Assembly (NCBI GenBank): GCA_002869265.1 | Contig: PKTH01000005.1 | Coordinates: forward strand, 1,423-65,422 | Reading direction: 5' to 3' | Length of the DNA stretch: 64,000 bases | Origin: Candidatus Parcubacteria bacterium | GTDB lineage: Bacteria > Patescibacteriota > Patescibacteriia > Patescibacteriales > BM507 | In this document: positions 7,428-52,575 of the stretch, piece after piece | How positions within the stretch are numbered: position 1 is the stretch's first letter | Layout of the letters: each line of letters begins with the position of its first letter | Notes under the pieces: generated by a model | What the model was told of the DNA's origin: nothing | Databases searched by the model: none | Seen by the model: only the letters and a program-made list of their open reading frames with translations | Translations under genes and position numbers: made by a program

Positions 7428-10572
<3,145 letters not shown>

Positions 10573-10761
10573 TTTTCTCACACTATTGACTTCAACAGTG
10601 TTTGAAATCGACTATCAGCAAAATTGATAGTCTAAATTTAAAATTGCAATATTGCAAATTTTAGATGCTTGTTAAGTATTTAAATGTCAAAGGTCTTATT
10701 AGAATTTTTATCAGCAATTTAATTTCTTAAATTACTGAACCAATCTTCTAATTTTTTAACA

Positions 10762-11047: not shown

Positions 11048-12094
11048 TTATTTCAATTTTTCAATTAATTCCGGGTTGTCCATATAAGCTTGAGCCTCAG
11101 TTTTTTCAATTAATTTCTCTTTGTACAGTCTCTTGATGTCTTGATCTATACTTACCATTCCCTCTTTTGAGCTTGTTTCAATAACTGTTTTTAGTTGTGC
11201 AATTTTATTTTCACGAATCAAATTTGAAACTGCTGGATTGTTTATCATTACCTCTCTGGCAGCCACTCTGCCACCGTCTATCTTATGCAAAAGTCTTTGT
11301 GAGACAACACCAGCCAAAGTATTAGCAACTTGCATTCTCACTTGATTTTGTTGATGGGGAGGGAATATGTCAATAATACGATCAACTGTTTGAGCGGCGT
11401 TGTAGGTATGAAGAGTAGCTAAAACTAAATGTCCTGTCTCAGCCAAAGTTATGGTGGTTGCAATAGTTTCCAAATCCCTCATCTCTCCAACCATGATAAC
11501 ATCAGGGTCTTGTCTCAGAGCATGCTTTAAGCCATTGTTAAAACTCATCATGTCTCTTCCTAATTGTCTTTGAATAATGACACTTTTATCGGCCTTAAAC
11601 TGATATTCAATTGGATCTTCAAAAGTAATAATATTTGCTCTTCTGTTTGTGTTGATATAATTAATCATTGCAGCCAAGGCGGTTGACTTACCACAGCCCG
11701 TAGGTCCTGTTACCAGTATAAGACCATGTTTTAAATCTAAAAGGTTATAAACTATCTCGGGCATTTGAATTTCTTCCAAAGTAGGCATCTTGTCTGTTAT
11801 AACTCTTGCCACCAAGCCAATATTTCCTCTTTCATAATGAATATTAACTCTAAATCGATAATCTCCTAGTTCCGTACCAAAATCTAGTTCTTTATACTCC
11901 GTAAATTTACTTTTTTGTTCGGCATCTAAGGAGCTTAAAACCATTGTTTCCATGTCTTTTTCCCCAAGCTCCTTCTCTCCTTCTATATCTACAAGCTCTC
12001 CATCAATTCTTAGAAAGGGTGGCCTACCCACAACTAAATGCAAATCTGAAGCCTTTTTCTCAATTGCTATTTTAAATAAGTCTTTTAATGTCAT
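11048..12094 (-). CDS. pilT: Type IV pilus retraction ATPase PilT
   Basis: 348 aa. Walker A GPTGCGKST, Asp/His boxes, and PilT-size secretion ATPase blocks (MVGEMRDLETI, GHLVLATLHT). Confidence 0.85.
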   Translation of the reverse strand: MTLKDLFKIAIEKKASDLHLVVGRPPFLRIDGELVDIEGEKELGEKDMETMVLSSLDAEQKSKFTEYKELDFGTELGDYRFRVNIHYERGNIGLVARVITDKMPTLEEIQMPEIVYNLLDLKHGLILVTGPTGCGKSTALAAMINYINTNRRANIITFEDPIEYQFKADKSVIIQRQLGRDMMSFNNGLKHALRQDPDVIMVGEMRDLETIATTITLAETGHLVLATLHTYNAAQTVDRIIDIFPPHQQNQVRMQVANTLAGVVSQRLLHKIDGGRVAAREVMINNPAVSNLIRENKIAQLKTVIETSSKEGMVSIDQDIKRLYKEKLIEKTEAQAYMDNPELIEKLK

Positions 12095-15619: not shown

Positions 15620-15648
15620 ATGGAGACGATTAATCGTCTCCATTTTAT
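15620..15648. terminator. Bidirectional intrinsic terminator
   Basis: Perfect stem ATGGAGACGAT / ATCGTCTCCAT with an A-run before and a T-run after. The T-run overlaps the queA stop. Confidence 0.7.
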
Positions 15649-16691
15649 TTTATAAACATAGCGTCTCCGTAAGAATAAAAACGATATTTTTTTTCAATTG
15701 CTTCTTTGTAGGCTCTTTTTACTTCTTCTTTCCCCGCCATTGCACTTACCAACATTATAAGAGTTGATTTTGGAAGGTGAAAGTTTGTAACTATCGAATC
15801 AACATTTTTAAACTGATACCCAGGATAAATAAATATATCCACCCAAGCACTAAGAGCATCACTATTACCAAGCGCCTCTAAAGACCTGGCGCTGGTTGTG
15901 CCAACCGCAATAATCTTGTTCTTATTATTTTGTGTTTCTCTTATTTTTTTAACTGTTTTTGAACTTATTTCAACCCACTCAGCATGCATCTTATGACTCT
16001 CTATATCATCTACTTTTACAGGCGCAAAAGTCCCCATTCCAACATGAAGGGTAATGTACTCTATGTTCACTCCTTTGTTTTTGATCTTTTCTAAAAGCTC
16101 TGGGGTGAAATGAAGTCCAGCTGTTGGGGCTGCGACTGAGCCCTGCTTATCGGCTTCTGCAAAAACAGTTTGATAATCTTTCTTGTCTTTTTCGGTATTA
16201 TATTTTTTATTGTCTAGCTTTCTTTGCTTTTCTATATAGGGGGGGAGGGGAATCTTGGCATTCATCTCTAAGAAGCCCATCAACCCTTTTCCTTCCATGG
16301 GAAGTTCAACCAGCCAAGTCCCATCTCCATTTTCCTCTCTGACTAGCACCTCAAAATAATCTGTTATTTTTATTGTCAGCCCTTCTTTTATTTTCTTCCC
16401 GCCAATCAAGCACTGCCACCTATATTTAGTTTGAGGATGCAAAAGAAAAACTTCTATTTTCCGCTCACTTTCTTTCACTTTCCCTAATAATCTAGCTGGA
16501 AAAACTTTTGAATTGTTTAAAACCAGCAAATCTCCCTTTTCAAAATAATCCAAAATATCATAAAACCTTTTATGAGATATTTCTCCGTTTTCTTTATCCA
16601 AAACCAACATTCTCGAATGATCACGAGGACTTATTGGGCTGGTGGCAATTAAATTTTCGGGTAAATCAAAATTAAAATCAGAAACTTTCAT
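15645..16691 (-). CDS. queA: S-adenosylmethionine:tRNA ribosyltransferase-isomerase
   Basis: 348 aa. DFNFDLPENLIA..P...RD.SRMLVL N-terminus and the VGTTS block. Confidence 0.9.
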   Translation of the reverse strand: MKVSDFNFDLPENLIATSPISPRDHSRMLVLDKENGEISHKRFYDILDYFEKGDLLVLNNSKVFPARLLGKVKESERKIEVFLLHPQTKYRWQCLIGGKKIKEGLTIKITDYFEVLVREENGDGTWLVELPMEGKGLMGFLEMNAKIPLPPYIEKQRKLDNKKYNTEKDKKDYQTVFAEADKQGSVAAPTAGLHFTPELLEKIKNKGVNIEYITLHVGMGTFAPVKVDDIESHKMHAEWVEISSKTVKKIRETQNNKNKIIAVGTTSARSLEALGNSDALSAWVDIFIYPGYQFKNVDSIVTNFHLPKSTLIMLVSAMAGKEEVKRAYKEAIEKKYRFYSYGDAMFIK

Positions 16692-25395: not shown

Positions 25396-25501
25396 ATTAT
25401 TTAGTTTTAATAATAACTATTCATACTATATTACAGGTATATTAAAAATTTATTAAATTATAAGCACAAAAAAAAGACTGTCTTAAACAGTCTTTTAAAT
25501 G

Positions 25502-25575
25502 TGGACGCACAAGGACTCGAACCTTGGACCCCTTCGGTGTAAACGAAGTGCTCTAGCCAACTGAGCTATGCGTCC
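25502..25575 (-). tRNA. tRNA-Val (anticodon TAC)
   Basis: Reverse complement folds as a cloverleaf: GGACGCA-TA-GCTC-AGTTGGCTA-GAGC-A-CTTCG-TTTACAC-CGAAG-GGGTC-CAAGG-TTCGAGT-CCTTG-TGCGTCC-A. CCA is not encoded. Confidence 0.9.
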
Positions 25576-26376: not shown

Positions 26377-26508
26377 TTAATCGCTCCATTTTAATGGTAA
26401 AATCTCCATAACTTCACCACAACAATAAATATCTCCATCGCCGTTTTCAATAACCTCTATAAGATTACCACAAATTTCACATTTATATTTACCGTCTTTT
26501 ACTGTCAT
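26377..26508 (-). CDS. Desulforedoxin paralog (43 aa), not in the ORF track
   Basis: [43 protein letters not shown], with the same CxxC...CC iron-binding pattern. Confidence 0.8.
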   Translation of the reverse strand: MTVKDGKYKCEICGNLIEVIENGDGDIYCCGEVMEILPLKWSD

Positions 26509-26514
26509 ATGTTT

Positions 26515-27048
26515 TTAATAATTTTCTGCTTTTATTTCAAAATGTGCCTGAGGATGTTTGCAGGCCGGGCATGATTCTGGCGCCACTTTTCCAAAATGTA
26601 AGTAACCACAGTTATTACATTTCCACATCACATCACCATCTGCCTCAAATACCATATTGTCCTCAATATTCTTTAATAGTTTTAAATATCTTTCTTCGTG
26701 TGCTTTTTCAACCTCGGCCACCTTTCTAAAAGCCTCAGCAATTTCAGTGTGCCCTTCTTCTTCAGCCTCTTTTGCCATTCTAGGATACATCTCCGTATTT
26801 TCTTCATGCTCTCCTTCAGCGGCAGCAGCTAAATTTGCTTTTGTGTCTCCAATAAGCTCTAAATATTTTGCCCAAAGCTTAGCATGTTCTTTCTCGTTCT
26901 CGGCCGTTTCCATAAACAGGTTGGAAATTTGAATGTAGCCAGCTTTTCGAGCAACGCTGGCAAAATATGTGTATTTATTTCTTGCCATAGACTCTCCAGC
27001 AAAAGCCTCTTCAAGATTTTTTTTAGTTTTTTCACCTAGTTGTGCCAT
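26515..27048 (-). CDS. rbr: Rubrerythrin
   Basis: 177 aa. Ferritin-like diiron domain (ExxH pairs) plus a C-terminal rubredoxin-like CNNCGY...CPACKHP. Confidence 0.88.
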
Positions 27049-27058
27049 AAATTTATTC

Positions 27059-32142: not shown

Positions 32143-32272
32143 ATTTTTCTCTAATATTTATGTCTTCCTATTATATTAAAGTTGACTAGTAATAACAAGG
32201 CCAAAATCAAAAAAATTATTGACTTAATATTTTATATATGGTCTATTATACTAACAAGAAAAATTGATTCAA

Positions 32273-33880
32273 ATGAATAATAAAACAAACAAAACTGAAT
32301 ATATTATAAAACTTCTTCTTAATGATAATATTAAATCTCGAAACGATTTAATGAATCAAAAAAGGAAAATTGCCAAATCCCTGAAGATAAACATTCCACA
32401 AAACTCTGAATTACTAAAAAGCTACGCTAAATTAAAAAAAGAAAAGCAAATAAAAGAAGATATTGAATTTGAGAAACTTCTCAGAAAAAGAGCTGTTCGC
32501 ACCATGTCAGGGATTGCTCCTGTGGCTGTATTGACAAAACCTTGGCCCTGTCCAGGTAATTGTGCTTATTGCCCAACTGAAAAAGACGTTCCTCAAAGTT
32601 ATCTTTCAAACGAGCCAGCTGTTATGAGGGCAATCCGCTGTGACTACAATCCGTACATCCAAACACAATTTAGACTAAAAGCCTTAGAAAATAACGGGCA
32701 TCTACCCACAAAAATTGAATTAATAGTGATAGGGGGTACCTGGAGTTATTTGCCTATAAAATATAAATTTTGGTATATAAAAGAATGCTTTCGAGCTGCC
32801 AATGATTATTACAGAAAATCTCCTGCAAAGTCCCCAAAAGTTAGTGCAAAAATTGAAGATTTAAAGGAGGCTTTAAAAAAAGAACAAAAAAGAAATGAAA
32901 ATACAAAATACCAAATAATTGGACTTACCCTTGAGACTAGGCAAGACTATATAAATGAAAAAGAAGTATTGGAAATGCGTGAACTAGGATGCACTAGAGT
33001 AGAACTTGGGGTTCAAGCAATAGATGATGAAATTCTCCAATTAAATAGAAGGGGGAATAAAAATTCCGAAACGATTAGAGCCACTAAAATGCTACGTGAC
33101 TTTGGTTTTAAAGTAACCTATCACCTAATGCCAGGCCTCCCAGGTTCCACCCCAAAAAAAGATCTGGTAATGTTCAGAGAACTTTTTAGCTCTCCGAATT
33201 ACCAGCCCGACCAAATAAAATTCTACCCAACCGTTGTTACAAAGGGTAGCCTTCTTTACAAGTGGTGGAAACAAGGAAAATACAAACCATATTCCGACAA
33301 AGTTTTACAAAGCTTGATTATTAAATGTAAAGAACTTGTGCCCACCTATGTAAGAATAATAAGATTAATTCGTGATATCCCAGGAGAGTCCATAGAGGCA
33401 GGCAATCTAATAACAAACCTAAGACAAATCATGAAAGACCAGGGAGTTAAGTGCTCATGCATCCGCTGTCGAGAAATAAAAGATTCAAAATATAAATTAG
33501 GGGATATAAAATTGAATATCCAAGAATACCCTGCTGGCGGGGGAAGAGAATTTTTTATCAGCTATGATTCAAAAGACAAAAAAAATCTCTACGCCTTCTT
33601 GCGTTTGCGATTGAATAATAATGAAAATTGTTTTTCTAAGTTGCTCTCAGCTTCAGCTATTGTAAGAGAACTTCATGTTTATGGAGAATTAACATCCATC
33701 GGTGATAAAAAAAGAATACAACACTCTGGCTTGGGCCAAAAACTAATAAAAAAAGCTGAAGAGATTGCTCAAAAAAATGGCTACAAAAAAATGACTATTA
33801 TCTCCGGTATAGGAGTTAGATCATACTATAAAAAGTTTGGATATAAACTGTCTAAAACTTATATGCAAAAAAATATTTGA
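32273..33880 (+). CDS. elp3: Elp3-family radical SAM + GNAT acetyltransferase (tRNA U34 cm5 modification enzyme-like)
   Basis: ~535 aa from the ATG at 32273 (track start 32264 is a TTG). Radical-SAM cluster CPGNCAYCP, the Elp3 central domain, and a C-terminal GNAT (QHSGLGQKLIKKAEEIA). Confidence 0.8.
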   Translation: MNNKTNKTEYIIKLLLNDNIKSRNDLMNQKRKIAKSLKINIPQNSELLKSYAKLKKEKQIKEDIEFEKLLRKRAVRTMSGIAPVAVLTKPWPCPGNCAYCPTEKDVPQSYLSNEPAVMRAIRCDYNPYIQTQFRLKALENNGHLPTKIELIVIGGTWSYLPIKYKFWYIKECFRAANDYYRKSPAKSPKVSAKIEDLKEALKKEQKRNENTKYQIIGLTLETRQDYINEKEVLEMRELGCTRVELGVQAIDDEILQLNRRGNKNSETIRATKMLRDFGFKVTYHLMPGLPGSTPKKDLVMFRELFSSPNYQPDQIKFYPTVVTKGSLLYKWWKQGKYKPYSDKVLQSLIIKCKELVPTYVRIIRLIRDIPGESIEAGNLITNLRQIMKDQGVKCSCIRCREIKDSKYKLGDIKLNIQEYPAGGGREFFISYDSKDKKNLYAFLRLRLNNNENCFSKLLSASAIVRELHVYGELTSIGDKKRIQHSGLGQKLIKKAEEIAQKNGYKKMTIISGIGVRSYYKKFGYKLSKTYMQKNI

Positions 33881-33923
33881 TATTATTTTATTAAAAGTAT
33901 AAAATTATAGAGAATTATATAGC

Positions 33924-34625
33924 ATGAAGAAAATCAACGAATTAAAAAAAGAATTAGAAGAGCTATCTAACAAAAAGCAAAAGGAAATATCTCAAAAATT
34001 CTTCAAAACTGGAAAAGGTGAATATGCTGAAGGAGATATCTTCTTAGGAATTAAGGTCCCTGTAATGAGGGCCTTGGCTCGTGGTTTTTATGATCTCTCC
34101 CTTAATGACTTGCAAACTCTCTTAAAAAGCAAAATCCATGAACATCGTTTTATAGCACTGGTGATTCTTTCAGAAAAATTCAAAATAGCTGACCTGGAAT
34201 ACCAAGAAGCAATTTACAGACTCTACCTAGAAAATACCAAAAACATAAATAATTGGGACTTGGTTGACATCTCTGCTCCTAATATCGTTGGGGCCTATCT
34301 AAAAGACAAGGACAGAAGAGTTCTCTACACATTGGCTGGTTCAAAAAATCTTTGGGAAAGAAGAATTGCTATAGTTTCAACCTTTACTTTTATTAGAAAT
34401 AATGATTTTTTCGAAACAATTACTATCTCGGAACTCTTAATAAACGACCCCCATGACCTAATTCACAAAGCCTCTGGCTGGATGCTTAGGGAAATGGGGA
34501 AAAAGGACGAAAAGACATTAAAGAAATTTTTAAATAAATTCAAAGAAAAAATGCCCCGCACGATGCTTCGCTACGCCATAGAGAAATTCAAGCCAGAAGA
34601 GAGAAAAAAATATTTAGCAAAATAA
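33924..34625 (+). CDS. DNA alkylation repair protein (AlkD/AlkC-like HEAT-repeat glycosylase family)
   Basis: 233 aa. Pattern FFKTGKGEYAEGDIFLGI.VP..R...W..RRIA typical of this family. Confidence 0.7.
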   Translation: MKKINELKKELEELSNKKQKEISQKFFKTGKGEYAEGDIFLGIKVPVMRALARGFYDLSLNDLQTLLKSKIHEHRFIALVILSEKFKIADLEYQEAIYRLYLENTKNINNWDLVDISAPNIVGAYLKDKDRRVLYTLAGSKNLWERRIAIVSTFTFIRNNDFFETITISELLINDPHDLIHKASGWMLREMGKKDEKTLKKFLNKFKEKMPRTMLRYAIEKFKPEERKKYLAK

Positions 34626-34626
34626 A

Positions 34627-34658
34627 AGATCAATTTCACAGTAAATTGATCTTTTTTT
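34627..34658 (+). terminator. Intrinsic terminator
   Basis: 10-bp stem AGATCAATTT / AAATTGATCT followed by a T7 run. Confidence 0.8.
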
Positions 34659-34811
34659 GACTTTTTGTGCTTTTTTTAATACACTTTTAACTAAGTAAAA
34701 CTTTCCTATCTTTTTCTTGCCAGTCTTTCCCCAAAGACTAGCAACACAAACAGAAAGGAGGATAAAGTATTTGGGGATTTGTTTCTTCCACTCTCACGTA
34801 AGGAGGATTGG

Positions 34812-35240
34812 ATGAATCGTTTCATTGTTTTGCTCTTTATCATTTTTGCCGCCTTCCTTGTGGTAACGCAGGTCGTAATCGCAGCTGACACCGCGCAGGG
34901 CGATATGCCCGTGGTTATTGCGAATATCGACAACACTCCTACAAATGCATCGCAGTCATTTGAGGACATGAACGCCGATCGCTTTTTCGCCAGTCTCTTC
35001 AACCCTGCAGAAAACCTTATCCTGACCGACAACCAAGCATTGACCTGCCGTAACGGAAATCTGATCTCGCCTGGCCTTATCAATCCTGAACAAAATTCCA
35101 TACTGATGGCAAAAATCAAGATTGCAATCGCAGGCGGCGATAACACGGTAATGGCCCACGAGGCAAAACTCCGGGTAAATAGCCCAACCATTGTGCTCAA
35201 CCGGCACTCAATTCGAGCCGGGCTGCCTCTCTTGGCCTAA
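34812..35240 (+). CDS. Orphan secreted protein in a G+C-rich islet
   Basis: 142 aa from the ATG at 34812 with AAGGAGG 6 nt upstream. Signal peptide MNRFIVLLFIIFAAFLVVTQVVIA/AD. Composition is clearly richer in G+C than the flanks. No family recognised. Confidence 0.5.
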   Translation: MNRFIVLLFIIFAAFLVVTQVVIAADTAQGDMPVVIANIDNTPTNASQSFEDMNADRFFASLFNPAENLILTDNQALTCRNGNLISPGLINPEQNSILMAKIKIAIAGGDNTVMAHEAKLRVNSPTIVLNRHSIRAGLPLLA

Positions 35241-35267
35241 AATCGAACGGTCCAGAGGACAGTAACA

Positions 35268-35306
35268 AATCCCTCCTAATTCATATATTGGGAGGGATTT
35301 TTTCTT
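35268..35306 (+). terminator. Intrinsic terminator
   Basis: Stem AATCCCTCC / GGAGGGATT followed by TTTTTTC. Confidence 0.75.
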
Positions 35307-35317
35307 TTGCCACTCTT

Positions 35318-35346
35318 TTGACAAGTCAAAATATTTACCCTAATAT
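35318..35346 (+). promoter_or_regulatory. Sigma70-type promoter for glyA-folD
   Basis: TTGACA, 17-nt spacer, TAATAT, ~30 nt before the glyA ATG. Confidence 0.55.
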
Positions 35347-35374
35347 TAAATTATAATTATTAAATAATTTTAAT

Positions 35375-36622
35375 ATGGACTACAAAAATCTTGAAAAAAC
35401 TGATCCTGACACACTCGCAATAATACAAAAAGAAGAAAAGAGGCAAGAAACAGAGCTAGAAATGATTGCTTCTGAAAACTATGTTTCTTCAGCTGTGCTT
35501 GAAGCTATGGCCTCGGTCCTAAATAACAAATATTCTGAAGGCTATCCTGGGAAAAGATATTATGGGGGCAATCAGGTTATAGACGAAATTGAAATATTGG
35601 CTCAAACCAGGGCAAAAAAGATATTCGGCGCAGAACATGTTAATGTCCAACCACTATCCGGCTCTCCAGCTAACGCAGCTGTCTATATGGCATTTCTAAA
35701 ACCAGGAGACAAGGTGTTAGGGCTTAAACTTGACCACGGGGGGCACCTTTCACATGGACATAAAGTAAATTTTTCTGGGATGCTATATGATTTTGTTCAA
35801 TACGAAGTAGATGAAAAAACAGGCTATATCGACATGGACGAAGTAGAAAAACTTGCCTTAAAAGAAAAACCAAAAATGATTGTAGCTGGCTTTTCTGCAT
35901 ATTCAAGAGAAATTGATTGGGAAAGATTTAAGGAAATAGCTGACAAAATTGGAGCTTACACCTTTGCTGATATCGCCCATACAGCAGGGCTAATCGCTGC
36001 TGGTGTTATGAAAAATCCAGTTTCATATTTTGATGTAGTCTCAACCACAACACACAAAACCCTTAGGGGCCCAATAGGAGCAATGATTATGTGCAGGGAA
36101 GAACATGCCAAAAAAGTAGACCGAGCTGTGTTCCCTGGAATGCAGGGTGGTCCTCATGAACATATTACAGCCGCTAAAGCAGTTTCTTTTTTAGAGGCTG
36201 ATACTGAAGATTTTAAAAACTATGCTAAACAAACAATTCTAAATGCTCAAGCCCTCAGTAATGAAATGATAAAACTTGGATATAAAGTTATTTCGGACGG
36301 GACTGACAATCATTTAATTGTAGTAGATATGAATTCCAAATCTCTTTCCGGAAAGGAAGCTGAAGTTGTTTTAGAAAATATTGGTATTTCTGTTTCAAGA
36401 TCAACTATACCAAATGATCCAAACCCACCTATGAACCCTTCGGGTATAAGAATCGGGACTGCTGCCCTAACAACCAGGGGAATGCAAGAAAAAGAAATGA
36501 AGCAAATCGCCAAATGGATTGATTCTTCAGTGGGGAACAAGGAAAATCCTGAATATTTAGAAAATATAAAAAAAGACGTGGAAAAACTCAGTAAAGAGTT
36601 TCCACTTCCAAGCTCGAAATAA
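35375..36622 (+). CDS. glyA: Serine hydroxymethyltransferase
   Basis: 415 aa. EMIASENY, the PLP-lysine block TTTHKTLRGP, and GGHLSHG. Confidence 0.93.
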   Translation: MDYKNLEKTDPDTLAIIQKEEKRQETELEMIASENYVSSAVLEAMASVLNNKYSEGYPGKRYYGGNQVIDEIEILAQTRAKKIFGAEHVNVQPLSGSPANAAVYMAFLKPGDKVLGLKLDHGGHLSHGHKVNFSGMLYDFVQYEVDEKTGYIDMDEVEKLALKEKPKMIVAGFSAYSREIDWERFKEIADKIGAYTFADIAHTAGLIAAGVMKNPVSYFDVVSTTTHKTLRGPIGAMIMCREEHAKKVDRAVFPGMQGGPHEHITAAKAVSFLEADTEDFKNYAKQTILNAQALSNEMIKLGYKVISDGTDNHLIVVDMNSKSLSGKEAEVVLENIGISVSRSTIPNDPNPPMNPSGIRIGTAALTTRGMQEKEMKQIAKWIDSSVGNKENPEYLENIKKDVEKLSKEFPLPSSK

Positions 36623-37455
36623 TGTCTAAATTAATTGACGGAAGAAAAATTGCCGAAAAAATAAAAGACAATATCACAAAAGAAATTTTTGCAATAAAAA
36701 AAAGGCCCAATCTGGCAATTATTTTGTTTGCTGGTCGAAGTGATTCGGAACTATATGTTAGCTTAAAAGAAAAAGAAGCAAAAAAAGTTGGTATTGATAC
36801 TCATCTCTATAAAATGGCAAGTGAAACAAGTGAAGAGGAGCTTCTGAACACTATTACCTATCTAAATAATGATGACCTGATTGATGGAATTCTAGTCCAA
36901 CTACCCCTCCCAAAACACATTGATACAGACAAGGTGATTAGGGCTATCTCACCGAAGAAAGATATAGACGGATTTCATCCAGAAAACATAAAAATTCTAG
37001 ATAGTGACAACCCAGAAGTTTTGTCACCTGTTTACGGGGCGATTATTGAGATGTTGAATGATATTAAATATGAACTAAAAAACAAAAAGGTTGTTATTAT
37101 TTCTAATTCTAATATTTTTGGAGATGGCTTAGTGAAAGTTTTACAAAGACTTGGCGCCAGTGTTCAATCCTGTCATCCGGACGATAAAGATCTTAAAAAA
37201 ATATCAAAAACTGCAGATGTGTTAATTTCTGCTGTTGGTAAACCACGTTTTATTAAAAAAGATTTTATTAAAAAAGATTCTATTTTAATTGACATAGGAA
37301 TAACCAAGGAAAACAAATCAGTAAGGGGGGATTTTGATTTTGAGGACGTAGAAAACTATTGCGCCTATATCAGTCCAGTCCCCGGAGGAGTTGGACCACT
37401 TACCATAGCAATGACTTTTCAAAACACTCTAAATTTTTTTAAGAAAAAACAATAG
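36622..37455 (+). CDS. folD: Bifunctional methylenetetrahydrofolate dehydrogenase/cyclohydrolase
   Basis: 277 aa. GILVQLPLP and PVPGGVGP(L)T motifs. The start overlaps the glyA stop. Confidence 0.9.
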   Translation: MSKLIDGRKIAEKIKDNITKEIFAIKKRPNLAIILFAGRSDSELYVSLKEKEAKKVGIDTHLYKMASETSEEELLNTITYLNNDDLIDGILVQLPLPKHIDTDKVIRAISPKKDIDGFHPENIKILDSDNPEVLSPVYGAIIEMLNDIKYELKNKKVVIISNSNIFGDGLVKVLQRLGASVQSCHPDDKDLKKISKTADVLISAVGKPRFIKKDFIKKDSILIDIGITKENKSVRGDFDFEDVENYCAYISPVPGGVGPLTIAMTFQNTLNFFKKKQ

Positions 37456-37480
37456 CTCATTTCATCAAAAGGAGGAAATT

Positions 37481-37813
37481 GTGGAAATTTTAGGAATTGA
37501 TTCATTTTACATGTATTGGTTTGGCTTTGTGCTTGGCTGTATTATGCTTTCATTTGGAATAGGCGGCCTAGTCTACACTGGCAAAGAATTGTCTATTCGC
37601 CCTATGATCTGTTCAGTTATGGGTGGGATCACTGGAACAACCCTATTATTACTCTCGCTTTACCTCGGCAGGGCCTACCCATCTCCAATAACCGAACTAA
37701 AAGAAATTCTGACTATTATTCTGTTCTGCTCTTGCTTTATCATTCTACTTAGTTCGGGATCTATTTGGAAAAACTTCTTTCTCGTAGATGTTACTCAGAA
37801 AAAAACAATTTAG
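37481..37813 (+). CDS. Small membrane protein (3-4 TM)
   Basis: 110 aa, GTG start with AAAGGAGG 6 nt upstream. No family recognised. Confidence 0.45.
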   Translation: MEILGIDSFYMYWFGFVLGCIMLSFGIGGLVYTGKELSIRPMICSVMGGITGTTLLLLSLYLGRAYPSPITELKEILTIILFCSCFIILLSSGSIWKNFFLVDVTQKKTI

Positions 37814-37822
37814 CAAAAATTC

Positions 37823-37853
37823 AAAAAAGCTGTCGATTCTTCGACAGCTTTTA
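37823..37853. terminator. Bidirectional intrinsic terminator
   Basis: 10-bp stem AAGCTGTCGA / TCGACAGCTT with an A-run before and a T-run after. Confidence 0.75.
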
Positions 37854-37871
37854 CGTTTGTTAAGTAATTCT

Positions 37872-38903
37872 CTATTTTATTTTTCCGTTGGCAGAAAACA
37901 TTATTGCCAGACCTTGAGTGCGAGGAATTTTTGCTAAAATAATATTTATAATTACCATTATCGGAATGGACAAAAACATTCCAACCACTCCCCAAACAGA
38001 ACCCCAAAGACCCAAAGACAGAATAATCACTAAAGGACTTAGGTTAAGGCTCTTTCCCATTAATTTCGGTTCTAAAATATTTCCTACCAAAACCTGCACT
38101 GAAACCAAAAGGCCAAGCAGAAGAAGAAAAGTCCCCACGCTTGCAAACTGAACCAGAGAAAGAATCAATGGAAATATTACTGCAATTATTGAACCAATAG
38201 TTGGTATATAATTTAGAATAAATATAAGCATCGCCCAAAAAAGTGGAAAGTCCAAGCCAAGAACAATAAGAACAATGTAGCTCAAGACGGCTGTCAGGAG
38301 ACTCATGCCAGTTTTTATCGAAATATATGTTTTTATATCAGTGTCGATCTTTTTAACTACTTCGCAAAATTTATTATATTTTTCATTATTATTTAAAAAC
38401 AACTCAATCTTTTTATTAAAAATTTTGTATTCCAAAAATATTAAAACTAAATATATCAAAGTCATACCAGCATAGCCAGTCAAATTTCTTAAAAGATCAG
38501 TCATGATGCTCAAAAGCCTTGAAAAACTAACTGCATTAATAATATTGGAAACACTAGGCAATTCACTAACCCCCACCCAAGTCAAAATTGAGGCCAACAA
38601 AGCTTGTACTTTTTCTTGATACTCAGGCGCTCTCACTATCATTTTCCCAATATTAAACTCTAAAATTGAACCAAAAACCCAAAGCACTAGACCAATAAAG
38701 AAAAAAGCTAGCGTTAGTGAAAGAAAATTTGGAATTTTTTTATCTGCAATCTTTATTTTCCCCAAATAACTAGAGATTGCTATTATTACATACCAAAGCA
38801 CTGCAGCAATAACCAAGGGCAGCAAAAGAGACTTCCCTAAAACTAAAATATAAAAAATAACAAGCAAGGACACCAAAAATGACGCGACTTTTGTTAATGA
38901 CAT
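37872..38903 (-). CDS. AI-2E family transporter (PerM/YhhT-like permease)
   Basis: 343 aa, 7-8 TM. C-terminal blocks IP.IGS and G..G...G.P typical of the family. Confidence 0.7.
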   Translation of the reverse strand: MSLTKVASFLVSLLVIFYILVLGKSLLLPLVIAAVLWYVIIAISSYLGKIKIADKKIPNFLSLTLAFFFIGLVLWVFGSILEFNIGKMIVRAPEYQEKVQALLASILTWVGVSELPSVSNIINAVSFSRLLSIMTDLLRNLTGYAGMTLIYLVLIFLEYKIFNKKIELFLNNNEKYNKFCEVVKKIDTDIKTYISIKTGMSLLTAVLSYIVLIVLGLDFPLFWAMLIFILNYIPTIGSIIAVIFPLILSLVQFASVGTFLLLLGLLVSVQVLVGNILEPKLMGKSLNLSPLVIILSLGLWGSVWGVVGMFLSIPIMVIINIILAKIPRTQGLAIMFSANGKIK

Positions 38904-39016
38904 AATATTATTTTAATAATTTATTGTATTTATTAAATACTACCATAAAAACTGTCTATTTCAAGCATTTACTAAAACTTTGTAATAAGATAATATTGAC
39001 TTGTAAGAAATATCAA

Positions 39017-41125
39017 ATGAATATAAATAATAAACTCTCAGACGCAAAAGAATTACTAAAAATTCACTTTGGACACAAGGAACTTATACCTGGACAAGAA
39101 GAAGCAATCACAAACGTCCTGAATTCAAATAACACCGTTATCATAATGCCCACGGGTGGTGGGAAGTCTATGTGCTATCAACTACCTTCGTTGGTTCTTG
39201 ATGGAGTAACTCTTGTTATATCTCCTCTTATTTCTTTAATGAAAGACCAGGTAGACGCTCTCCTAAAGAACGGCGTACCAGCTACATTTATCAATAGCTC
39301 TCTTAGTGTTTCAGAGACCGCCAATAGAATAGAAGAGATAAAATCTGGCAAACATAAAATAATCTATATCGCTCCAGAACGTTTTTATAACAAAGAATTT
39401 TTTGAAATGATAAAAGAGGTGAATGTCTCCCTCTTTGCGGTTGATGAGGCCCATTGTATCTCACAGTGGGGTCACGACTTTAGACCAAGTTATAAAAGGT
39501 TGGGTTCAATCGCCGAAAATCTAGGGTCTCCACCCATTATCGCCCTAACCGCCACGGCCACCCCTGAGGTAAAAGAAGATATCGTCAAACAGCTAAAACT
39601 AGATAAGCCAAAGGTTATAATAACTGGCTTCGCCCGAGAAAATTTACAGTTTGGAGTTTTTAATACCTCCAAAAACATGAAGAGCAAACTTATCCTAGAC
39701 GCAGTAGATGGTATCCCAGAAAAGTCTGGGATCATATATGTTGGAACAAGGCAAAAAGCGGACGAGATAGTCCAAAGTTTATTAGATAGAGGCGTTGAGG
39801 CTGCTTCTTATCATGCTGGCATGGATCAAGAAAGTAGAAAGTGGGTTCAAGAAGAATTCATGAAAAATAAATTTCAAGTCATTGTCGCAACAAATGCCTT
39901 TGGAATGGGGATAGACAAAGAAGACATTAGATTCGTTATTCATCATGATCTGCCTGGCACTCTAGAGGCATATTATCAAGAAGCAGGAAGGGCAGGACGT
40001 GACGGTAAAGAGTCGTACTGCCTTCTATTATATTCATCATCGGATAGATATCTTCGTGAGTTTTTTATTAAAGGTGATAATCCCTCTCAATATATAGTAG
40101 AAGAAGTATATGATCTCTTAAAGAGCTATGAGAGTGACACAGTTTTAATAACTTACTCTGAGCTAAAAAAATCACTCTCAGAGGATGTTCCCGAAATGGC
40201 AGTTGGCACTTGCATAAAAATTCTTGAACATGAAGGTTTTATAAAAAGATCCAGTGAAAAAACAAGCAGCGCTTTCATTCGAGTCCTTGAACCATTTGAA
40301 AGAATCTTTGACAAAATAGGAACAAGGGCCAAAGTGCAAATAAGGATTCTTGAAAAACTTCAAAAAAGGTTTGAAGCTGAATTACTTAATGGCTGGGACT
40401 TGAATCTTGAAGAAATAGGCGAAATAATTGAAGAGAAAAAAGATTCCATTCAAAGAGTAGTAAAAAAGTTATCTGAATTAGAGCTCTTGGAATACCGGCC
40501 ACCATTCAGAGGAACAGAGTTAAAAATCATCAAGAGAGTAGAGATAGATGAAATGGACATAGATTTTAGTCTCCTAAAGGAAAAAGCTAAAAGCGCTTAT
40601 ATAAAACTAGACAAAATGGAGGAATATGTTTATGAAGATAGGTGCAGACAAAGATATATTTTAGAATACTTTGGTGATGACGACAAACACAACTGTGGTC
40701 GTTGTGACCTCTGCATCAGCAAAGGAAATGTTATAAACAAGGGTTTCCAACAAAAACAATCAAAAACTTTTTATAGGAAAAAAGAAGTTAAAGAAGTAAG
40801 TTTTGACGCCCCCGTTGCCGGAGCGAATCTCTCAACCAAGCTCACTCAGTTTGAAACCCTGGATTTATACAAAAGCGGCTTAGATATAGACGATATGGCA
40901 ATGACTAGAAATCTTAAACCTGATACCATAGTAGAACATCTATGTTTTTTAATAGAAAAAGGAATGGATGTAAACATAGACAAGTTTGTAACGCATAAAA
41001 AACAAAAGGAAATAAAGAAAATAAAAGAGGAAATAGGCAATTCAAAACTAAGCATAGTCAAGGAAAAACTTGGAAATGATTTTACGTGGAGAGAAATTAA
41101 ACTAACAATTTCAACTTTAAAATAA
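39017..41125 (+). CDS. recQ: ATP-dependent DNA helicase RecQ
   Basis: ~702 aa from the ATG at 39017 (track start 38924 is a TTG). PTGGGKS, DEAHCISQWGHDFRPSY, a zinc-binding CxxC cluster, and a C-terminal helix-rich DNA-binding-like domain. Confidence 0.9.
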   Translation: MNINNKLSDAKELLKIHFGHKELIPGQEEAITNVLNSNNTVIIMPTGGGKSMCYQLPSLVLDGVTLVISPLISLMKDQVDALLKNGVPATFINSSLSVSETANRIEEIKSGKHKIIYIAPERFYNKEFFEMIKEVNVSLFAVDEAHCISQWGHDFRPSYKRLGSIAENLGSPPIIALTATATPEVKEDIVKQLKLDKPKVIITGFARENLQFGVFNTSKNMKSKLILDAVDGIPEKSGIIYVGTRQKADEIVQSLLDRGVEAASYHAGMDQESRKWVQEEFMKNKFQVIVATNAFGMGIDKEDIRFVIHHDLPGTLEAYYQEAGRAGRDGKESYCLLLYSSSDRYLREFFIKGDNPSQYIVEEVYDLLKSYESDTVLITYSELKKSLSEDVPEMAVGTCIKILEHEGFIKRSSEKTSSAFIRVLEPFERIFDKIGTRAKVQIRILEKLQKRFEAELLNGWDLNLEEIGEIIEEKKDSIQRVVKKLSELELLEYRPPFRGTELKIIKRVEIDEMDIDFSLLKEKAKSAYIKLDKMEEYVYEDRCRQRYILEYFGDDDKHNCGRCDLCISKGNVINKGFQQKQSKTFYRKKEVKEVSFDAPVAGANLSTKLTQFETLDLYKSGLDIDDMAMTRNLKPDTIVEHLCFLIEKGMDVNIDKFVTHKKQKEIKKIKEEIGNSKLSIVKEKLGNDFTWREIKLTISTLK

Positions 41126-41844
41126 TGGACAATAATACTGAAAAAAGATTACTAAATATAGTCAAATCAAACTACGATATTATTGGTAAACATTTTTCCG
41201 AAACAAGAAAGAAAGAAATTTGGCCCGAATTAAAGAAAATTGCCAAGCAGGTAGAAGAAAACTCAAAGATTCTAGATTTAGGTTGTGGCAATGGAAGACT
41301 ATTAAGAGCCTTTGATTCTAAAAACCTAGAATATTTTGGGATCGACCAAAGTGAATCATTAATAGAAGAGGCTATGAAACAATTTCCAAATGATCATTTT
41401 TTAGTTGGAGACATTTTAGACCTTAGTAAAATTGATTTAAAGAAGAATAAACTTCCAAAAAAGTTTAACTTTATTTTTTCTATAGCTGTTTTGCAACATA
41501 TCCCAGGAAAGAAAAAAAGAATAGAATTTCTCAGAACACTTAAGAATTACTTGGAACCAGATGGAGTGATTGTGTTTTCCAATTGGAATATGTGGGAAAT
41601 CCCAAAATATAAAAAGCTAGTCTATAGAACATTTTTTTTAAAAATACTGAGAAAAAATTCCTTAGACTTTGGCGATGTTCTCTTTGATTGGAAAAATAGC
41701 AAAGGAGAGACAGTGAGCCAAAGATATTATCATGCTTTTCGAAAATACGAACTTCGTTCTCTTTTTAAAAAAGCGGGCTACAAAGTAAGGAAAAATTACA
41801 AAGATAAATTCAATTTTTATACAATTTTATCAATTAAGACCTAG
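41125..41844 (+). CDS. Trm9/ALKBH8-like class I SAM-dependent methyltransferase (putative tRNA mcm5U34 methyltransferase)
   Basis: 239 aa. Blocks are collinear with yeast Trm9 as I recall it: HFSETRKKEIWP (HFSQTRYKPWP), LDLGCGNGRLL (IDVGCGNGKYL), FSIAVLQHIP (ISIAVVHHWS), RYYHAFRKYEL (RYYHLYREGEL). The start overlaps the recQ stop. Confidence 0.65.
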   Translation: MDNNTEKRLLNIVKSNYDIIGKHFSETRKKEIWPELKKIAKQVEENSKILDLGCGNGRLLRAFDSKNLEYFGIDQSESLIEEAMKQFPNDHFLVGDILDLSKIDLKKNKLPKKFNFIFSIAVLQHIPGKKKRIEFLRTLKNYLEPDGVIVFSNWNMWEIPKYKKLVYRTFFLKILRKNSLDFGDVLFDWKNSKGETVSQRYYHAFRKYELRSLFKKAGYKVRKNYKDKFNFYTILSIKT

Positions 41845-41922: not shown

Positions 41923-41996
41923 GCACTTGTAGCTCAATTGGATAGAGCACTTGGCTTCGGACCAAGGGGTTGTGGGTTCGAGTCCTACCGGGTGCA
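41923..41996 (+). tRNA. tRNA-Arg (anticodon TCG)
   Basis: GCACTTG-TA-GCTC-AATTGGATA-GAGC-A-CTTGG-CTTCGGA-CCAAG-GGGTT-GTGGG-TTCGAGT-CCTAC-CGGGTGC-A. Confidence 0.88.
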
Positions 41997-42008
41997 CACA
42001 ACATATTT

Positions 42009-50798: not shown

Positions 50799-51386
50799 TT
50801 AATAAAATATAACATCTTTAAAAGTTTCCTTTACTCTGTCCTCCTTTTTATATATAACATTAAGCAAAAACTTAAAGTAAAGAAGAATAACTGCGATATA
50901 GAATACAAGAAAACTAAAGTTCCAAATATTTTCATTTGCTACTCCAAAAACAGCCAAGAAACCGACAGAAACGTATAAAATATAAAATACCAGTAATGCT
51001 CTCAAGAATGAACTCCTAGCGCTTGTTTGTTTGTCTATCTCAGATGAGATTCTGGCAATGGAAACCTGGATTGCCCTAAATAAAAATAAGAAAAGTATAG
51101 CCCTAAAGCCCGTATTGTCTTTAATTAGATAATCAAGAAAAAAAACGAGGAAAACTCCTCCAAAAAAGAAGGAGGACAAATAGGAGAACAGCTCTCTTTT
51201 TATCCTTAGAAATAAGGCTTGGTTTATGAAAAAAAAGAATAAAAGGAAAAAAATCTCAAAAAAAGCAAAAGAAATTATTTTATCAAAAAATAAGTCAAAG
51301 TTAATTGAAGCCCTGCCTAGCAATGCAAAAAACAGGCCAGCAGACACAAAAAACGCTAATTTTTTTACTATCTTTTCTAAAGTCAT
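50799..51386 (-). CDS. Hypothetical polytopic membrane protein
   Basis: 195 aa, 5-6 hydrophobic helices. The start abuts the upstream gene's stop (2-nt gap, 51386/51388). Confidence 0.45.
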   Translation of the reverse strand: MTLEKIVKKLAFFVSAGLFFALLGRASINFDLFFDKIISFAFFEIFFLLFFFFINQALFLRIKRELFSYLSSFFFGGVFLVFFLDYLIKDNTGFRAILFLFLFRAIQVSIARISSEIDKQTSARSSFLRALLVFYILYVSVGFLAVFGVANENIWNFSFLVFYIAVILLYFKFLLNVIYKKEDRVKETFKDVIFY

Positions 51387-51387
51387 T

Positions 51388-52575
51388 TTATTTCTTTTTT
51401 AAGTGTATTATTTCTCTCCAAACCTTTTGTCCAGGACGTCCATAGACAATCCCTCCTTTTTGGCTAAGTGAGAACATGTTGTTCTTTAGATACTCCTGGT
51501 TTATCAAGGGAACAATTTCAAACCCACTGTGATTTATTTTATCTAGAAATAGCTTTTTCTTATCTCCAGCCCGGGAAACAAAAACTGGCCAAACCATAAC
51601 GACATCTGCGCCCTTTTTTAAACATTGATAAATTGATTTTAAGCTATCTGAATATAAATTCTCTAGCTCTGACACTGTTTTATGCAAATCATGCTCTCCT
51701 CTCTGTGGACCTAAATATGGCTCGGTTACAACAGCATCAATTTCTTCTTCTATGATCTCAGACACTTTTGTAGCACTTATTTTATGTAATTGAAAATTTG
51801 CATTATACCTCTCGTCTCTTTGTAGCCAGTTCAGATTTTTTCTAGAATCATCAATCGCCTTTTGGGAAATGTCAGTTCCATATATTTTTTTTACACCCAT
51901 GACTGAAGCTTCAGCTAATATTGTCCCCGAACCACAAAAGGGATCTAGAAAAACAGTTTTCTCCTTCACTTGAGCAATATTTAACATAATTTGAGCTAAT
52001 TTTGGTGGTATCATCCCTGATTCATCGTCCCTTTCTGGCCTCCCATAATCTCTTCTAGATAAGCCCTTAAAATCTTGAACTGCTAAAGTTTTTCCTAAAT
52101 AAAAAATATTTCCTATCTTAAATACACAAAAATCTACCCCCTTTTCAACAAGTTTGTTTTGCTCAACAATCACGCTTGAAAGATCGTTTTCTTTACTGGT
52201 AACCCACCTAGAAGAAACCCCATCTTCCTTTAAATACTTTTTAAATTCCATTGCAAAACGATTAATGTTCATTCTCACCTGACTATAAACTGAAAAACCA
52301 AACTTGTACTTAAAATCAATGTTTGCTGTCCCGGCTGTTTGAATAAAGTCAGCAATGCCTAGATTGTTTTTCTCCATCGATATTATTCCTATTTTTATAG
52401 CTCCTCCCATTTTTTTTACAAGCTCAGCGCAGTTTATTTCTTTTTTTGTTTCAATAAAAACGAATCTTCTGTCATGGGCTTGAACTTTTTGAAAATTATC
52501 ATCGTTTCCTGAAATAGCAAGAATCTCTGCTAAGGACAAGCTTGGGTTTGAACCTAATATTAAAAAATATTTCAT
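51388..52575 (-). CDS. Putative RNA (guanine-N2/adenine-N6-type) methyltransferase, Trm11/RlmL-like
   Basis: 395 aa. N-terminal RNA-binding-like domain, SAM motif I LDPFCGSGTILAEA, and motif IV-like VVTEPYLGP. Confidence 0.5.
   Translation of the reverse strand: MKYFLILGSNPSLSLAEILAISGNDDNFQKVQAHDRRFVFIETKKEINCAELVKKMGGAIKIGIISMEKNNLGIADFIQTAGTANIDFKYKFGFSVYSQVRMNINRFAMEFKKYLKEDGVSSRWVTSKENDLSSVIVEQNKLVEKGVDFCVFKIGNIFYLGKTLAVQDFKGLSRRDYGRPERDDESGMIPPKLAQIMLNIAQVKEKTVFLDPFCGSGTILAEASVMGVKKIYGTDISQKAIDDSRKNLNWLQRDERYNANFQLHKISATKVSEIIEEEIDAVVTEPYLGPQRGEHDLHKTVSELENLYSDSLKSIYQCLKKGADVVMVWPVFVSRAGDKKKLFLDKINHSGFEIVPLINQEYLKNNMFSLSQKGGIVYGRPGQKVWREIIHLKKK

Follow-up and report, generated by a model that had tools for sequence, protein, structure and literature searches.

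Linked genes for Elp3 and a Trm9-like methyltransferase in Patescibacteria: a probable wobble-uridine modification pathway in bacteria

Introduction

Can a bacterium modify its wobble uridines with Elp3 and a Trm9-type methyltransferase, and does such a route take the place of MnmE and MnmG? This question is raised by a 64-kb stretch of a Patescibacteria/candidate phyla radiation (CPR) contig assigned to Candidatus Parcubacteria (the window), in which an elp3 gene and a gene for a Trm9-like methyltransferase had been observed together, an observation confirmed by the present analysis. Reviews place MnmE and MnmG in most bacteria, restrict bacterial Elp3 to a single clade, Dehalococcoides, and report no detectable bacterial homologues of the Trm112-dependent enzymes Trm9 and Trm11 (PMC7663514, PMC5372719). 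These statements are contradicted by the linked Elp3/Trm9-like pair, often accompanied by a Trm11-like gene, that occurs in hundreds of species of Patescibacteria. No paper describing an Elp3/Trm9-like pair in CPR was found, and no relevant literature emerged from searches pairing Elp3 or Elongator with either Patescibacteria or the candidate phyla radiation.

The contig is bacterial, as it carries a bacterial 23S rRNA gene (2502 bits) together with genes for RNase Y, MurD, PolA, RuvB, RecA, EF-P, and HU. A 155-aa open reading frame (ORF) lying within the 23S rRNA gene lacks coding-like features and was taken as spurious.

A stand-alone bacterial Elp3

The elp3 gene occupies positions 32273..33880 of the forward strand and encodes a stand-alone Elp3 of 535 aa with radical-SAM and GNAT/KAT domains. 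The mechanically defined ORF extends over 32264..33880 (forward strand), opening at a TTG codon at 32264; the ATG at 32273, chosen as the start in the initial annotation, gives the same 535-aa product as the gene callers. The protein matched TIGR01211 with 551.9 bits (cutoff 350) over model positions 3-522 of 522, and the Pfam domains Radical_SAM, Radical_SAM_C, and GNAT (Acetyltransf_1, E 1.8e-5) were all recognized. In the 535-aa numbering, the cysteine triad of the radical-SAM cluster, CPGNCAYCP, is found at residue 93, aligned with PCPGKCIYCP of the Dehalococcoides enzyme (DmcElp3), the prokaryotic Cys3 zinc motif CSCIRC at residue 394, and the acetyl-CoA motif QHSGLG at residue 483. The initial description of a full-length Elp3 with a CPGNCAYCP cluster and a C-terminal GNAT domain thus stands.

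The closest solved structure is that of DmcElp3 (5l7j; E 2e-118, 399 bits), followed by Elp3 of Methanocaldococcus infernus (6ia8; E 1e-116). DmcElp3 and the CPR protein share domain order and motifs, but DmcElp3 lacks a long basic N-terminus and is weakly active (PMC7663514), whereas the CPR protein has an archaeal-like extension of about 72 aa, with 19 K/R residues in its first 72 aa. A further difference is that no partner Trm9 has been described in Dehalococcoides. The view that bacterial Elp3 is known from scattered lineages agrees with the literature, but it understates the distribution seen in the data, as Patescibacteria very commonly possess Elp3, which automatic pipelines already annotate in their genomes. 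In one assembly from the same population, elp3 is interrupted by a nonsense mutation.

A Trm9-like methyltransferase

The second gene (41125..41844, forward strand) encodes a class I SAM methyltransferase of 239 aa, here proposed as a tRNA cm5U34 carboxyl O-methyltransferase. Its matches in Pfam and NCBIfam are generic; since neither collection contains a Trm9-specific model, the assignment to Trm9 rests on one solved structure and on residue mapping. Among 177,635 PDB sequences, the best match by sequence was Trm9 of Yarrowia (5cm2_Z, E 2e-15), with the runner-up at E 1.6e-6. The four sequence blocks on which the resemblance to Trm9 had originally been based align with 5cm2_Z over residues 27-234, well past chance. 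A profile built from the CPR family retrieved the same structure from the PDB with E 8e-24, the runner-up (1e-11) being matched over the Rossmann part only. The AF2 model (pLDDT 90.8) also had 5cm2_Z as its top Foldseek match (E 7e-18, TMt 0.83).

Comparison with E. coli enzymes on the same scale points in the same direction. The CPR family profile scored 86.5 bits against Yarrowia Trm9 over the full length, versus 32.6 for UbiG, 23.2 for CmoM/SmtA, 20.2 for CmoB, 13.6 for UbiE, and 12.6 for CmoA, all five of which were matched over the Rossmann core only. The C-terminal, substrate-binding half of the methyltransferase aligns with Trm9 alone. Residues R28, D51, H125, W154, W189, R200, Y202, and N230 correspond to R29, D72, H116, W145, W168, R241, Y243, and N271 of Saccharomyces Trm9 (ScTrm9), eight positions at which alanine substitution abolished or strongly reduced activity (PMC4678810). 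The counterpart of ScTrm9 H115 is a Gln in the CPR enzyme; the H115A mutant retains partial activity (PMC4678810). In an alignment of 82 sequences (80 GTDB species, the window, and Yarrowia Trm9), each of the eight essential residues was kept in 75-82 of the sequences. The sequence comparisons therefore support a methyltransferase nearer to Trm9 than to UbiE/SmtA-type enzymes over its full length, as the initial annotation had proposed.

Eukaryotic Trm9 requires Trm112. Neither CxxC nor motif scanning revealed a Trm112-like partner in the window. A Trm112/YcaR-like ORF was likewise not detected in related loci totalling 1.4 Mb (best phmmer E 0.18 with the E. coli YcaR query; no motif match). 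Clustering of all ORFs from the 80 loci revealed no conserved family of small neighbouring ORFs.

Genomic linkage of the two genes

The methyltransferase gene lies downstream of elp3 at a distance of 7.2 kb, in line with the roughly 7 kb first estimated. Between them lie, on the forward strand, glyA (35375..36622; serine hydroxymethyltransferase, Pfam SHMT), folD (36622..37455; methylene-THF dehydrogenase/cyclohydrolase, Pfam THF_DHG_CYH and THF_DHG_CYH_C), and a gene for a RecQ-family helicase (39017..41125), as well as an opposite-strand gene and terminator-like hairpins. The helicase has 702 aa according to the gene callers, its ORF reaching back to a TTG at 38924; it scored 451 bits against TIGR00614 recQ_fam (cutoff 219.8) and contains the Pfam domains DEAD, Helicase_C, RecQ_Zn_bind, and HTH_40. 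The ATG of the methyltransferase gene shares one base with the recQ stop codon (TAATG), which bears out the translational coupling previously suggested; the same coupling occurs in one related locus (L035). The partner in this coupling is recQ, not elp3.

Relatives of the methyltransferase are encoded by at least 516 species genomes. Within the fetched flanks, recQ was upstream of the methyltransferase gene in 63 of 80 related loci and was its immediate neighbour in most of them. The glyA gene was present in 47 of the 80, mostly between elp3 and recQ, and folD, a member of the same conserved CPR cluster, in 51. An elp3 gene was located upstream within 10 kb of the methyltransferase gene in 35 of 57 informative loci, and no elp3 was found within that distance in the other 22. 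The two genes are co-directional in 28 of the 35 linked loci, 12-13 of which show a contiguous elp3-glyA-folD-recQ-methyltransferase cluster. In six of the 35 the genes are instead arranged head-to-head, 15-424 bp apart; these pairs come from metagenome-assembled genomes (MAGs) labelled as Saccharibacteria, Gribaldobacteria, Portnoybacteria, and Kuenenbacteria, and in the three such loci inspected more closely the remaining neighbours differ. To judge from contigs of matching length, the two genes also occur together on 13 or more additional contigs.

Inherited gene order, not selection, could account for much of the same-strand synteny. A functional link is argued from the presence of Elp3 within 10 kb in 35 of the 57 loci and in two different, independent arrangements, which also upholds the original pairing of Elp3 with the Trm9-like enzyme. 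The pair is conserved and linked across Patescibacteria and is not peculiar to this organism. The genes for Elp3 and Trm9 are likewise clustered in Sulfolobus (PMC6144793). Through the recurrent elp3-glyA-folD-recQ-trm9 operon, wobble modification may be linked with one-carbon metabolism.

A Trm11-like gene in the window

A candidate for a THUMP-type tRNA guanine-N2 methyltransferase, of 395 aa, is encoded on the reverse strand at 51388..52575. The initial annotation described it as Trm11/RlmL-like, and by fold it is indeed Trm11-like. The three best PDB matches of its profile were archaeal Trm11 enzymes (E 5e-14), and the top five Foldseek matches of its AF2 model (pLDDT 90.5) were again archaeal Trm11 (E 7e-26 to 1e-23), aligned over the full length (about 400 columns), with TrmN, Trm14, and RlmL ranking behind. 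JGI labels homologues of the product 'tRNA G10 N-methylase Trm11'. The likeness to archaeal Trm11 (6zxw, 5e71; TMt 0.75-0.80) is thus one of full-length fold and of best profile match, but sequence identity is only about 17-18%. As the protein scored 97.3 bits against TIGR01177, under the cutoff of 316.55, it is called Trm11-like and not a confirmed member of the family. According to the reviewed literature, G10 of bacterial tRNA is unmethylated (PMC5372719).

Proposed pathway and alternative explanations

The window probably encodes an Elp3-dependent wobble-uridine pathway of the archaeal and eukaryotic kind, in which Elp3 is predicted to form cm5U34 and the Trm9-like enzyme to convert it to mcm5U34. 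As expected from its family membership, the stand-alone Elp3 would bind U34 tRNAs, aided by its basic N-terminal extension, and its GNAT domain would hydrolyse acetyl-CoA; the [4Fe-4S] radical-SAM site would generate a 5'-deoxyadenosyl radical, and radical chemistry would join C5 of U34 to the carbon derived from the acetyl group, giving cm5U34. The Trm9-like enzyme would then use SAM to esterify the carboxylate of cm5U34 to mcm5U34, a step suggested by the conserved active site and by the gene linkage. In this scheme the carboxylate would be kept in position by R28 and H125, and the uracil would be recognized by N230 and stack with W154.

It might be argued that the methyltransferase serves RecQ or some non-tRNA substrate, its closeness to elp3 being inherited and its likeness to Trm9 a generic class I trait. 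The frequent position of recQ directly upstream, the coupling of the two genes in the window and in L035, the generic nature of the Pfam and NCBIfam matches, and the diverse names given to the protein by JGI (UbiG, UbiE, SAM-MT) would fit this explanation. It is nevertheless quite unlikely, as the similarity extends into the substrate-binding C-terminal half, all eight Trm9 residues contacting cm5U or SAM are kept, and the six lineages with the methyltransferase gene head-to-head with elp3 have no adjacent recQ. An even more improbable proposal is that Elp3 acts alone, ending at cm5U or ncm5U, and that the methyltransferase esterifies another carboxylated wobble nucleoside, such as cmo5U, in the manner of CmoM. 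E. coli CmoM does carry out the same chemistry in a bacterium, and weak NCBIfam matches to CmoM, CmoA, and CmoB were obtained; the family profile, however, scores CmoM at 23 bits against 86.5 for Trm9, neither a cmoA nor a cmoB gene lies in the window, and the conserved neighbour is elp3, not a cmo gene.

Whether the predicted Elp3/Trm9-like pathway replaces the bacterial one is a separate matter. Genes for MnmE, MnmG, and MnmA were absent from the 64-kb window, and tblastn found neither MnmE nor MnmG in related CPR DNA totalling 1.40 Mb; in this search, of low power, about 1.5 matches per gene would be expected if MnmE and MnmG were universal and randomly placed. Literature searches turned up nothing on MnmE/MnmG in CPR either way. 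A bacterial-type MnmA gene adjoins the methyltransferase gene in three related loci (L055, L059, and L067), and the pathway therefore looks like a mosaic of bacterial and archaeal components rather than a wholesale import. This proximity of MnmA also makes mcm5s2U on split-box tRNAs of CPR plausible. A Patescibacteria-wide mosaic, in which mcm5U34 formation by archaeal/eukaryotic-type Elp3 and a Trm112-independent Trm9 replaces MnmE/MnmG and is combined with thiolation by bacterial MnmA and an additional archaeal-style methylation of tRNA by a Trm11-type enzyme, may be put forward tentatively, at a little under an even chance.

The two routes might instead coexist, with MnmE/MnmG encoded elsewhere in the genome and Elp3/Trm9 acting on a subset of tRNAs, so that nothing is replaced. 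This arrangement, a serious though rather doubtful possibility, would accord with the small part of the genome in view, about 64 kb out of roughly 1 Mb, and with the MnmA genes of related CPR loci, which suggest that bacterial wobble enzymes are kept, at least in part. The lack of MnmE/MnmG in the window and in the 1.40 Mb of CPR DNA is weak evidence against it, and a second C5 pathway for one and the same U34 would presumably be redundant in genomes so reduced.

Comparison with known systems

The closest known system is that of archaeal Elp3 and Trm9, represented by HVO_2888 and HVO_1032 of Haloferax volcanii and by the clustered genes of Sulfolobus solfataricus (PMC5372719, PMC6144793). As in archaea, the CPR Elp3 stands alone, without Elp1, 2, 4, 5, or 6, and has the CX4CX2C cluster, the Cys3 zinc motif, and the basic N-terminal extension; the gene for a small Trm9-type methyltransferase, likewise a separate protein, clusters with that for Elp3. 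The differences are that the CPR host is a bacterium, and that archaeal Trm9 binds Trm112 (PMC6144793), of which none was found in the CPR DNA searched. Distribution also differs: a 2017 review detected archaeal Trm9 orthologues in Sulfolobales and Halobacteriales only, whereas the breadth of the CPR family runs to hundreds of species genomes.

With the eukaryotic Elongator and Trm9-Trm112/ALKBH8 the CPR pair shares the predicted chemistry (cm5U to mcm5U) and the essential active-site residues of Trm9, but it lacks the Elp1-6 scaffold subunits, an AlkB or RRM fusion, and a detected Trm112, and its likely thiolation partner is the bacterial MnmA, not Ncs2/Ncs6. The bacterial enzymes MnmE/MnmG (cmnm5U34) and CmoM (mcmo5U34) target the same tRNA position, and CmoM performs the same carboxyl methyl-esterification; however, these enzymes and their cofactors are unrelated to those of the CPR pair.

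If active, the pair would deprive mcm5U of its value as a marker for archaea and eukaryotes, and the history of wobble modification would need to be revisited, either as ancient inheritance or as early transfer between CPR and archaea. An active pair would also give biochemists a bacterial Elp3 of full length and a Trm9 that naturally works without Trm112. Should the mosaic system hold true, decoding in a large part of bacterial diversity would rely on a modification that bacteria are thought to lack. The proposal lends itself to direct testing: the pair occurs in some Saccharibacteria-labelled MAGs (L061 and L078), and Saccharibacteria are amenable to co-culture and genetic manipulation (PMC10187176).

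tRNA genes in the window

Two tRNA genes with U34 were identified in the window by ARAGORN and Rfam. One, tRNA-Arg(UCG), lies directly 3' of the methyltransferase gene (41923..41997, forward strand) and is a possible substrate. It belongs to an Arg(UCG)-Met-Lys tRNA cluster that is found near the methyltransferase gene, in either orientation, in the sublineage of the window only; with its synteny so confined and its orientation variable, the cluster was rejected as evidence. The other, tRNA-Val(UAC), is located on the reverse strand at 25501..25575 and might, by inference, also be a substrate of Elp3.

The Trm9-like methyltransferase

The methyltransferase gene (41125..41844, + strand), 7.2 kb downstream of elp3, encodes a protein of 239 aa, and its ATG shares one base with the TAA of recQ, in agreement with the translational coupling proposed in the initial annotation. 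Searches of Pfam and NCBIfam gave generic class I methyltransferase matches alone, none of them close to a curated cutoff. Among all PDB sequences, the top match was Trm9 of Yarrowia lipolytica (5cm2_Z, E 2e-15, residues 27-234), the runner-up reaching 1.6e-6 over the Rossmann part only. This gap was wider with a profile built from 28 homologues of the candidate phyla radiation (CPR), which retrieved Trm9 at 8e-24 and the runner-up at 1e-11. Trm9 was also ranked first by Foldseek (E 7e-18, TM 0.83 on target) when the AlphaFold model of the protein (pLDDT 90.8) was used as query. On a common scale, Trm9 obtained 86.5 bits with the family profile, the match extending over the whole protein, against 32.6 for UbiG, 23.2 for CmoM/SmtA, 20.2 for CmoB, 13.6 for UbiE, and 12.6 bits for CmoA of E. 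coli; these values argue against a grouping with UbiE/SmtA-type enzymes, the alternative considered at the outset.

Alanine mutants of yeast Trm9 at R29, D72, H116, W145, W168, R241, Y243, and N271 resist zymocin and are either inactive or strongly impaired (Létoquart et al., PMC4678810). A HMMER alignment places them opposite R28, D51, H125, W154, W189, R200, Y202, and N230 in the protein encoded by the window. They are conserved, in the same order, in 82, 82, 80, 81, 76, 82, 75, and 81 of 82 sequences, a set comprising 80 GTDB species representatives, the window protein, and Y. lipolytica Trm9. The sole notable difference in the active site is a Gln at the position of yeast H115, a residue whose mutant retains partial activity (PMC4678810).

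The Elp3 protein

The elp3 gene (ORF 32264..33880, + strand) starts at the ATG at 32273 and codes for 535 aa, with matches in NCBIfam, Pfam, and PDB. The protein was correctly recognized from the start as a full-length Elp3: it scores 551.9 bits on TIGR01211 (ELP3, cutoff 350) with the entire model covered, has the Radical_SAM, Radical_SAM_C, and GNAT domains of Pfam, and keeps the cysteines of the radical-SAM site (CPGNCAYCP), a Cys3 zinc motif specific to prokaryotes (CSCIRC), and the acetyl-CoA loop (QHSGLG). Its closest solved structures are the Elp3 proteins of Dehalococcoides mccartyi (E 2e-118) and Methanocaldococcus infernus (E 1e-116), followed by eukaryotic ones at about 1e-94. It differs from the D. 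mccartyi enzyme in that its N-terminus is extended by about 72 residues, among which 19 are Lys or Arg; such an extension is found in most archaeal Elp3s and is important for tRNA binding (Lin et al., PMC6367351).

The window elp3 bears no sign of decay. In one JGI assembly from this population, a G-to-T substitution at position 33761 of the window (position 2637 of that locus, L001) introduces a stop codon, yielding a 496-aa Elp3 truncated within the GNAT domain; the gene is intact in the ENA and Logan assemblies as well as in the window, and the stop may reflect variation in the population or a sequencing error. Beginning 44 bp past elp3 is a gene of AlkD type, named “DNA alkylation repair enzyme” (33924..34625, + strand; PF08713, E 2e-63), which was seen only in the window's own assemblies. 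Animals have an ALKBH8 fusion, and the position of the AlkD-type gene is in this respect curious, although probably a coincidence.

Homologues of Elp3 are abundant, the best 120 being 61-79% identical to the window protein, and many of these, in Patescibacteria, have been automatically named Elp3 (NCBI) or “elongator complex protein 3” (JGI). The NCBI product name for TIGR01211 begins “tRNA uridine(34) 5-carboxymethylaminomethyl modification”. The product of Elp3 is cm5U and not cmnm5U, and this automatic name, which thousands of CPR proteins have received, is misleading about the chemistry.

Distribution and genomic linkage

Relatives of the methyltransferase are widespread: 922 homologues were detectable in a word-indexed search, 670 clusters at 50% identity matched the profile at E <= 1e-30 in an exhaustive profile search, and, with one genome scanned for each GTDB species, at least 516 genomes proved to encode a relative. 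The best 120 of the 922 homologues are all about 230 aa long, those with names all being from Patescibacteria, and the best 80 of the genomes are all CPR-type metagenome-assembled genomes (MAGs). Many of the representative MAGs (L015, L018, L022, L028, and about 30 more, from the binchicken TPA set) carry the title “uncultured Gammaproteobacteria bacterium”; around recQ and the methyltransferase gene, both the gene content and the synteny fit Patescibacteria, and these titles look wrong.

When window proteins were compared by tblastn with the 80 loci fetched around these relatives, 35 loci had Elp3 upstream of the methyltransferase at a distance of 10 kb or less, 22 lacked it with 8 kb or more of sequence available on that side, and the other 23 were too short to judge. 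The two genes are co-directional in 28 loci, of which 12-13, from CPR species, have a contiguous same-strand cluster elp3-glyA-folD-recQ-methyltransferase, with glyA encoding SHMT. In L035 the five genes lie at 4396..6018, 6083..7333, 7297..8133, 8169..9983, and 9980..10678, respectively; the cluster also occurs in L036, L043, L064, L065, L071, and L081. The window region 32273..41844 is an expanded version into which the AlkD-like gene, small ORFs, and an opposite-strand AI-2E transporter gene are inserted, with terminator-like hairpins dividing it into separate units. The cluster brings wobble-uridine enzymes together with genes of one-carbon metabolism and a RecQ helicase.

In six other loci, from MAGs labelled Saccharibacteria, Gribaldobacteria, Portnoybacteria, Kuenenbacteria, and others, the two genes are arranged head-to-head, 15-424 bp apart. 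The remaining neighbours differ among the three of these loci compared (L078, L088, and L089), and elp3, glyA, and folD stay together in L088 although the methyltransferase gene is divergent. Since the pair is kept in two unrelated arrangements at 37-54% methyltransferase identity, it is hard to ascribe its association to inherited gene order alone. At least 13 other contigs have both genes, as judged by contigs of equal length in the two homologue lists; two of them were examined directly. A parallel is provided by the Elp3-Trm9 gene cluster of Sulfolobus (PMC6144793).

Proposed pathway

The co-occurrence of Elp3 and a Trm9-like methyltransferase on one contig was thus borne out. In the best-supported reading, Elp3 would convert U34 of some tRNAs into cm5U34 through its known radical SAM and acetyl-CoA chemistry, and the methyltransferase would then methylate the cm5U34 carboxylate to give mcm5U34. 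This two-step route is probable: the two proteins are shown to belong to their families, to keep their catalytic residues, and to be linked in the genome, and the chemistry and substrates are inferred. The initial annotation had proposed a complete route in place of MnmE/MnmG. The route is upheld as probable; as for the possible replacement, no mnmE, mnmG, or mnmA gene occurs in the 64-kb window, and E. coli MnmE and MnmG had zero tblastn matches in 1.40 Mb of CPR DNA, a weak negative because only about 1.5 matches per gene would be expected there by chance placement. An E. coli-type MnmA (43-45% identity) is encoded 1-4 kb from the methyltransferase in three CPR loci (L055 11787..12794, L059 13162..14169, and L067 5665..6669, all on the - strand). 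This proximity suggests a mosaic mcm5s2U pathway, in which 2-thiolation would be carried out by the bacterial enzyme. No Trm112-like activator was found in the window or close to the methyltransferase gene in other genomes; either it is encoded elsewhere in the genome or the CPR methyltransferase works without one.

Both kinds of component are already known, and Elp3 is already machine-annotated in CPR genomes. The D. mccartyi protein has been described as “a rare example of bacterial Elp3s” (Lin et al., PMC6367351), and a 2026 paper refers to Elp3 in “numerous bacteria” (PMC13315578). According to a review on Trm112, no bacterial genes resembling Trm112-partner methyltransferases are detectable, and G10 of bacterial tRNA is unmethylated (PMC5372719). 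Literature searches for Elp3/Elongator in Patescibacteria or the candidate phyla radiation, and for MnmG in Patescibacteria, found nothing relevant. A conserved pairing of Elp3 with a Trm9-like enzyme across a major bacterial radiation appears undescribed in the accessible literature; it contradicts textbook-level statements and is directly testable in culturable Saccharibacteria.

A Trm11-like protein

The initial annotation had also pointed to a Trm11/RlmL-like methyltransferase (51388..52575, - strand, 395 aa). The product is Trm11-like by profile and predicted fold, ahead of RlmL, although it falls below the family cutoff (97 bits on TIGR01177, cutoff 316). Its profile retrieved archaeal Trm11 first (5e-14), and in a structural comparison with its AlphaFold model (pLDDT 90.5), archaeal Trm11 led with full-length matches (E 7e-26 to 1e-23, TM 0.75-0.80), TrmN, Trm14, and RlmL ranking lower. 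Homologues are widespread in Patescibacteria, named “tRNA G10 N-methylase Trm11” by JGI versus “DNA methyltransferase” by NCBI. One nucleotide after the gene (region 50799..52575, - strand) is encoded a very hydrophobic 195-aa protein belonging to no Pfam or NCBIfam family; it is not Trm112-like.

Host and other genes of the window

The host is a member of Patescibacteria, within the CPR. The DNA of the window is also present in assemblies of JGI, ENA, Logan, and NCBI, the last assigning it to a Candidatus Parcubacteria bacterium (locus tags C0584_00800 and C0584_00855). The window has a GC content of 35% and encodes bacterial 23S and 5S rRNA together with the housekeeping proteins RNase Y, HU, MurD, PolA, RuvB, RecA, EF-P, and NusB. 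CPR bacteria typically have unlinked, expanded rRNA genes. The 23S rRNA (7244..10579, - strand) extends over 3164 nt and its model over 2925 nt, indicating insertions, and the 5S gene comes next; no 16S rRNA gene lies beside it, the flanking gene (11048..12094) encoding a T2SSE ATPase. ORFs within the 23S gene appear spurious.

Two U34 tRNAs, Arg-UCG and Val-UAC, are encoded in the window and could be substrates of the Elp3/methyltransferase pathway. A tRNA cluster beside the methyltransferase gene, considered as a functional link, reflects lineage-specific synteny only. QueA, the S-adenosylmethionine:tRNA ribosyltransferase-isomerase (15645..16691, - strand), adds another wobble enzyme, of bacterial type (G34, queuosine), alongside Elp3. 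At about 26380..27050 (- strand), two tandem mini-ORFs of 39 and 43 aa come after a rubrerythrin gene, and neither matches more of desulfoferrodoxin than its N-terminal, desulforedoxin-like domain; with the adjoining genes for a metallo-beta-lactamase/ODP-type protein and a DsbA-like thioredoxin, these genes form a small oxidative-stress cluster.
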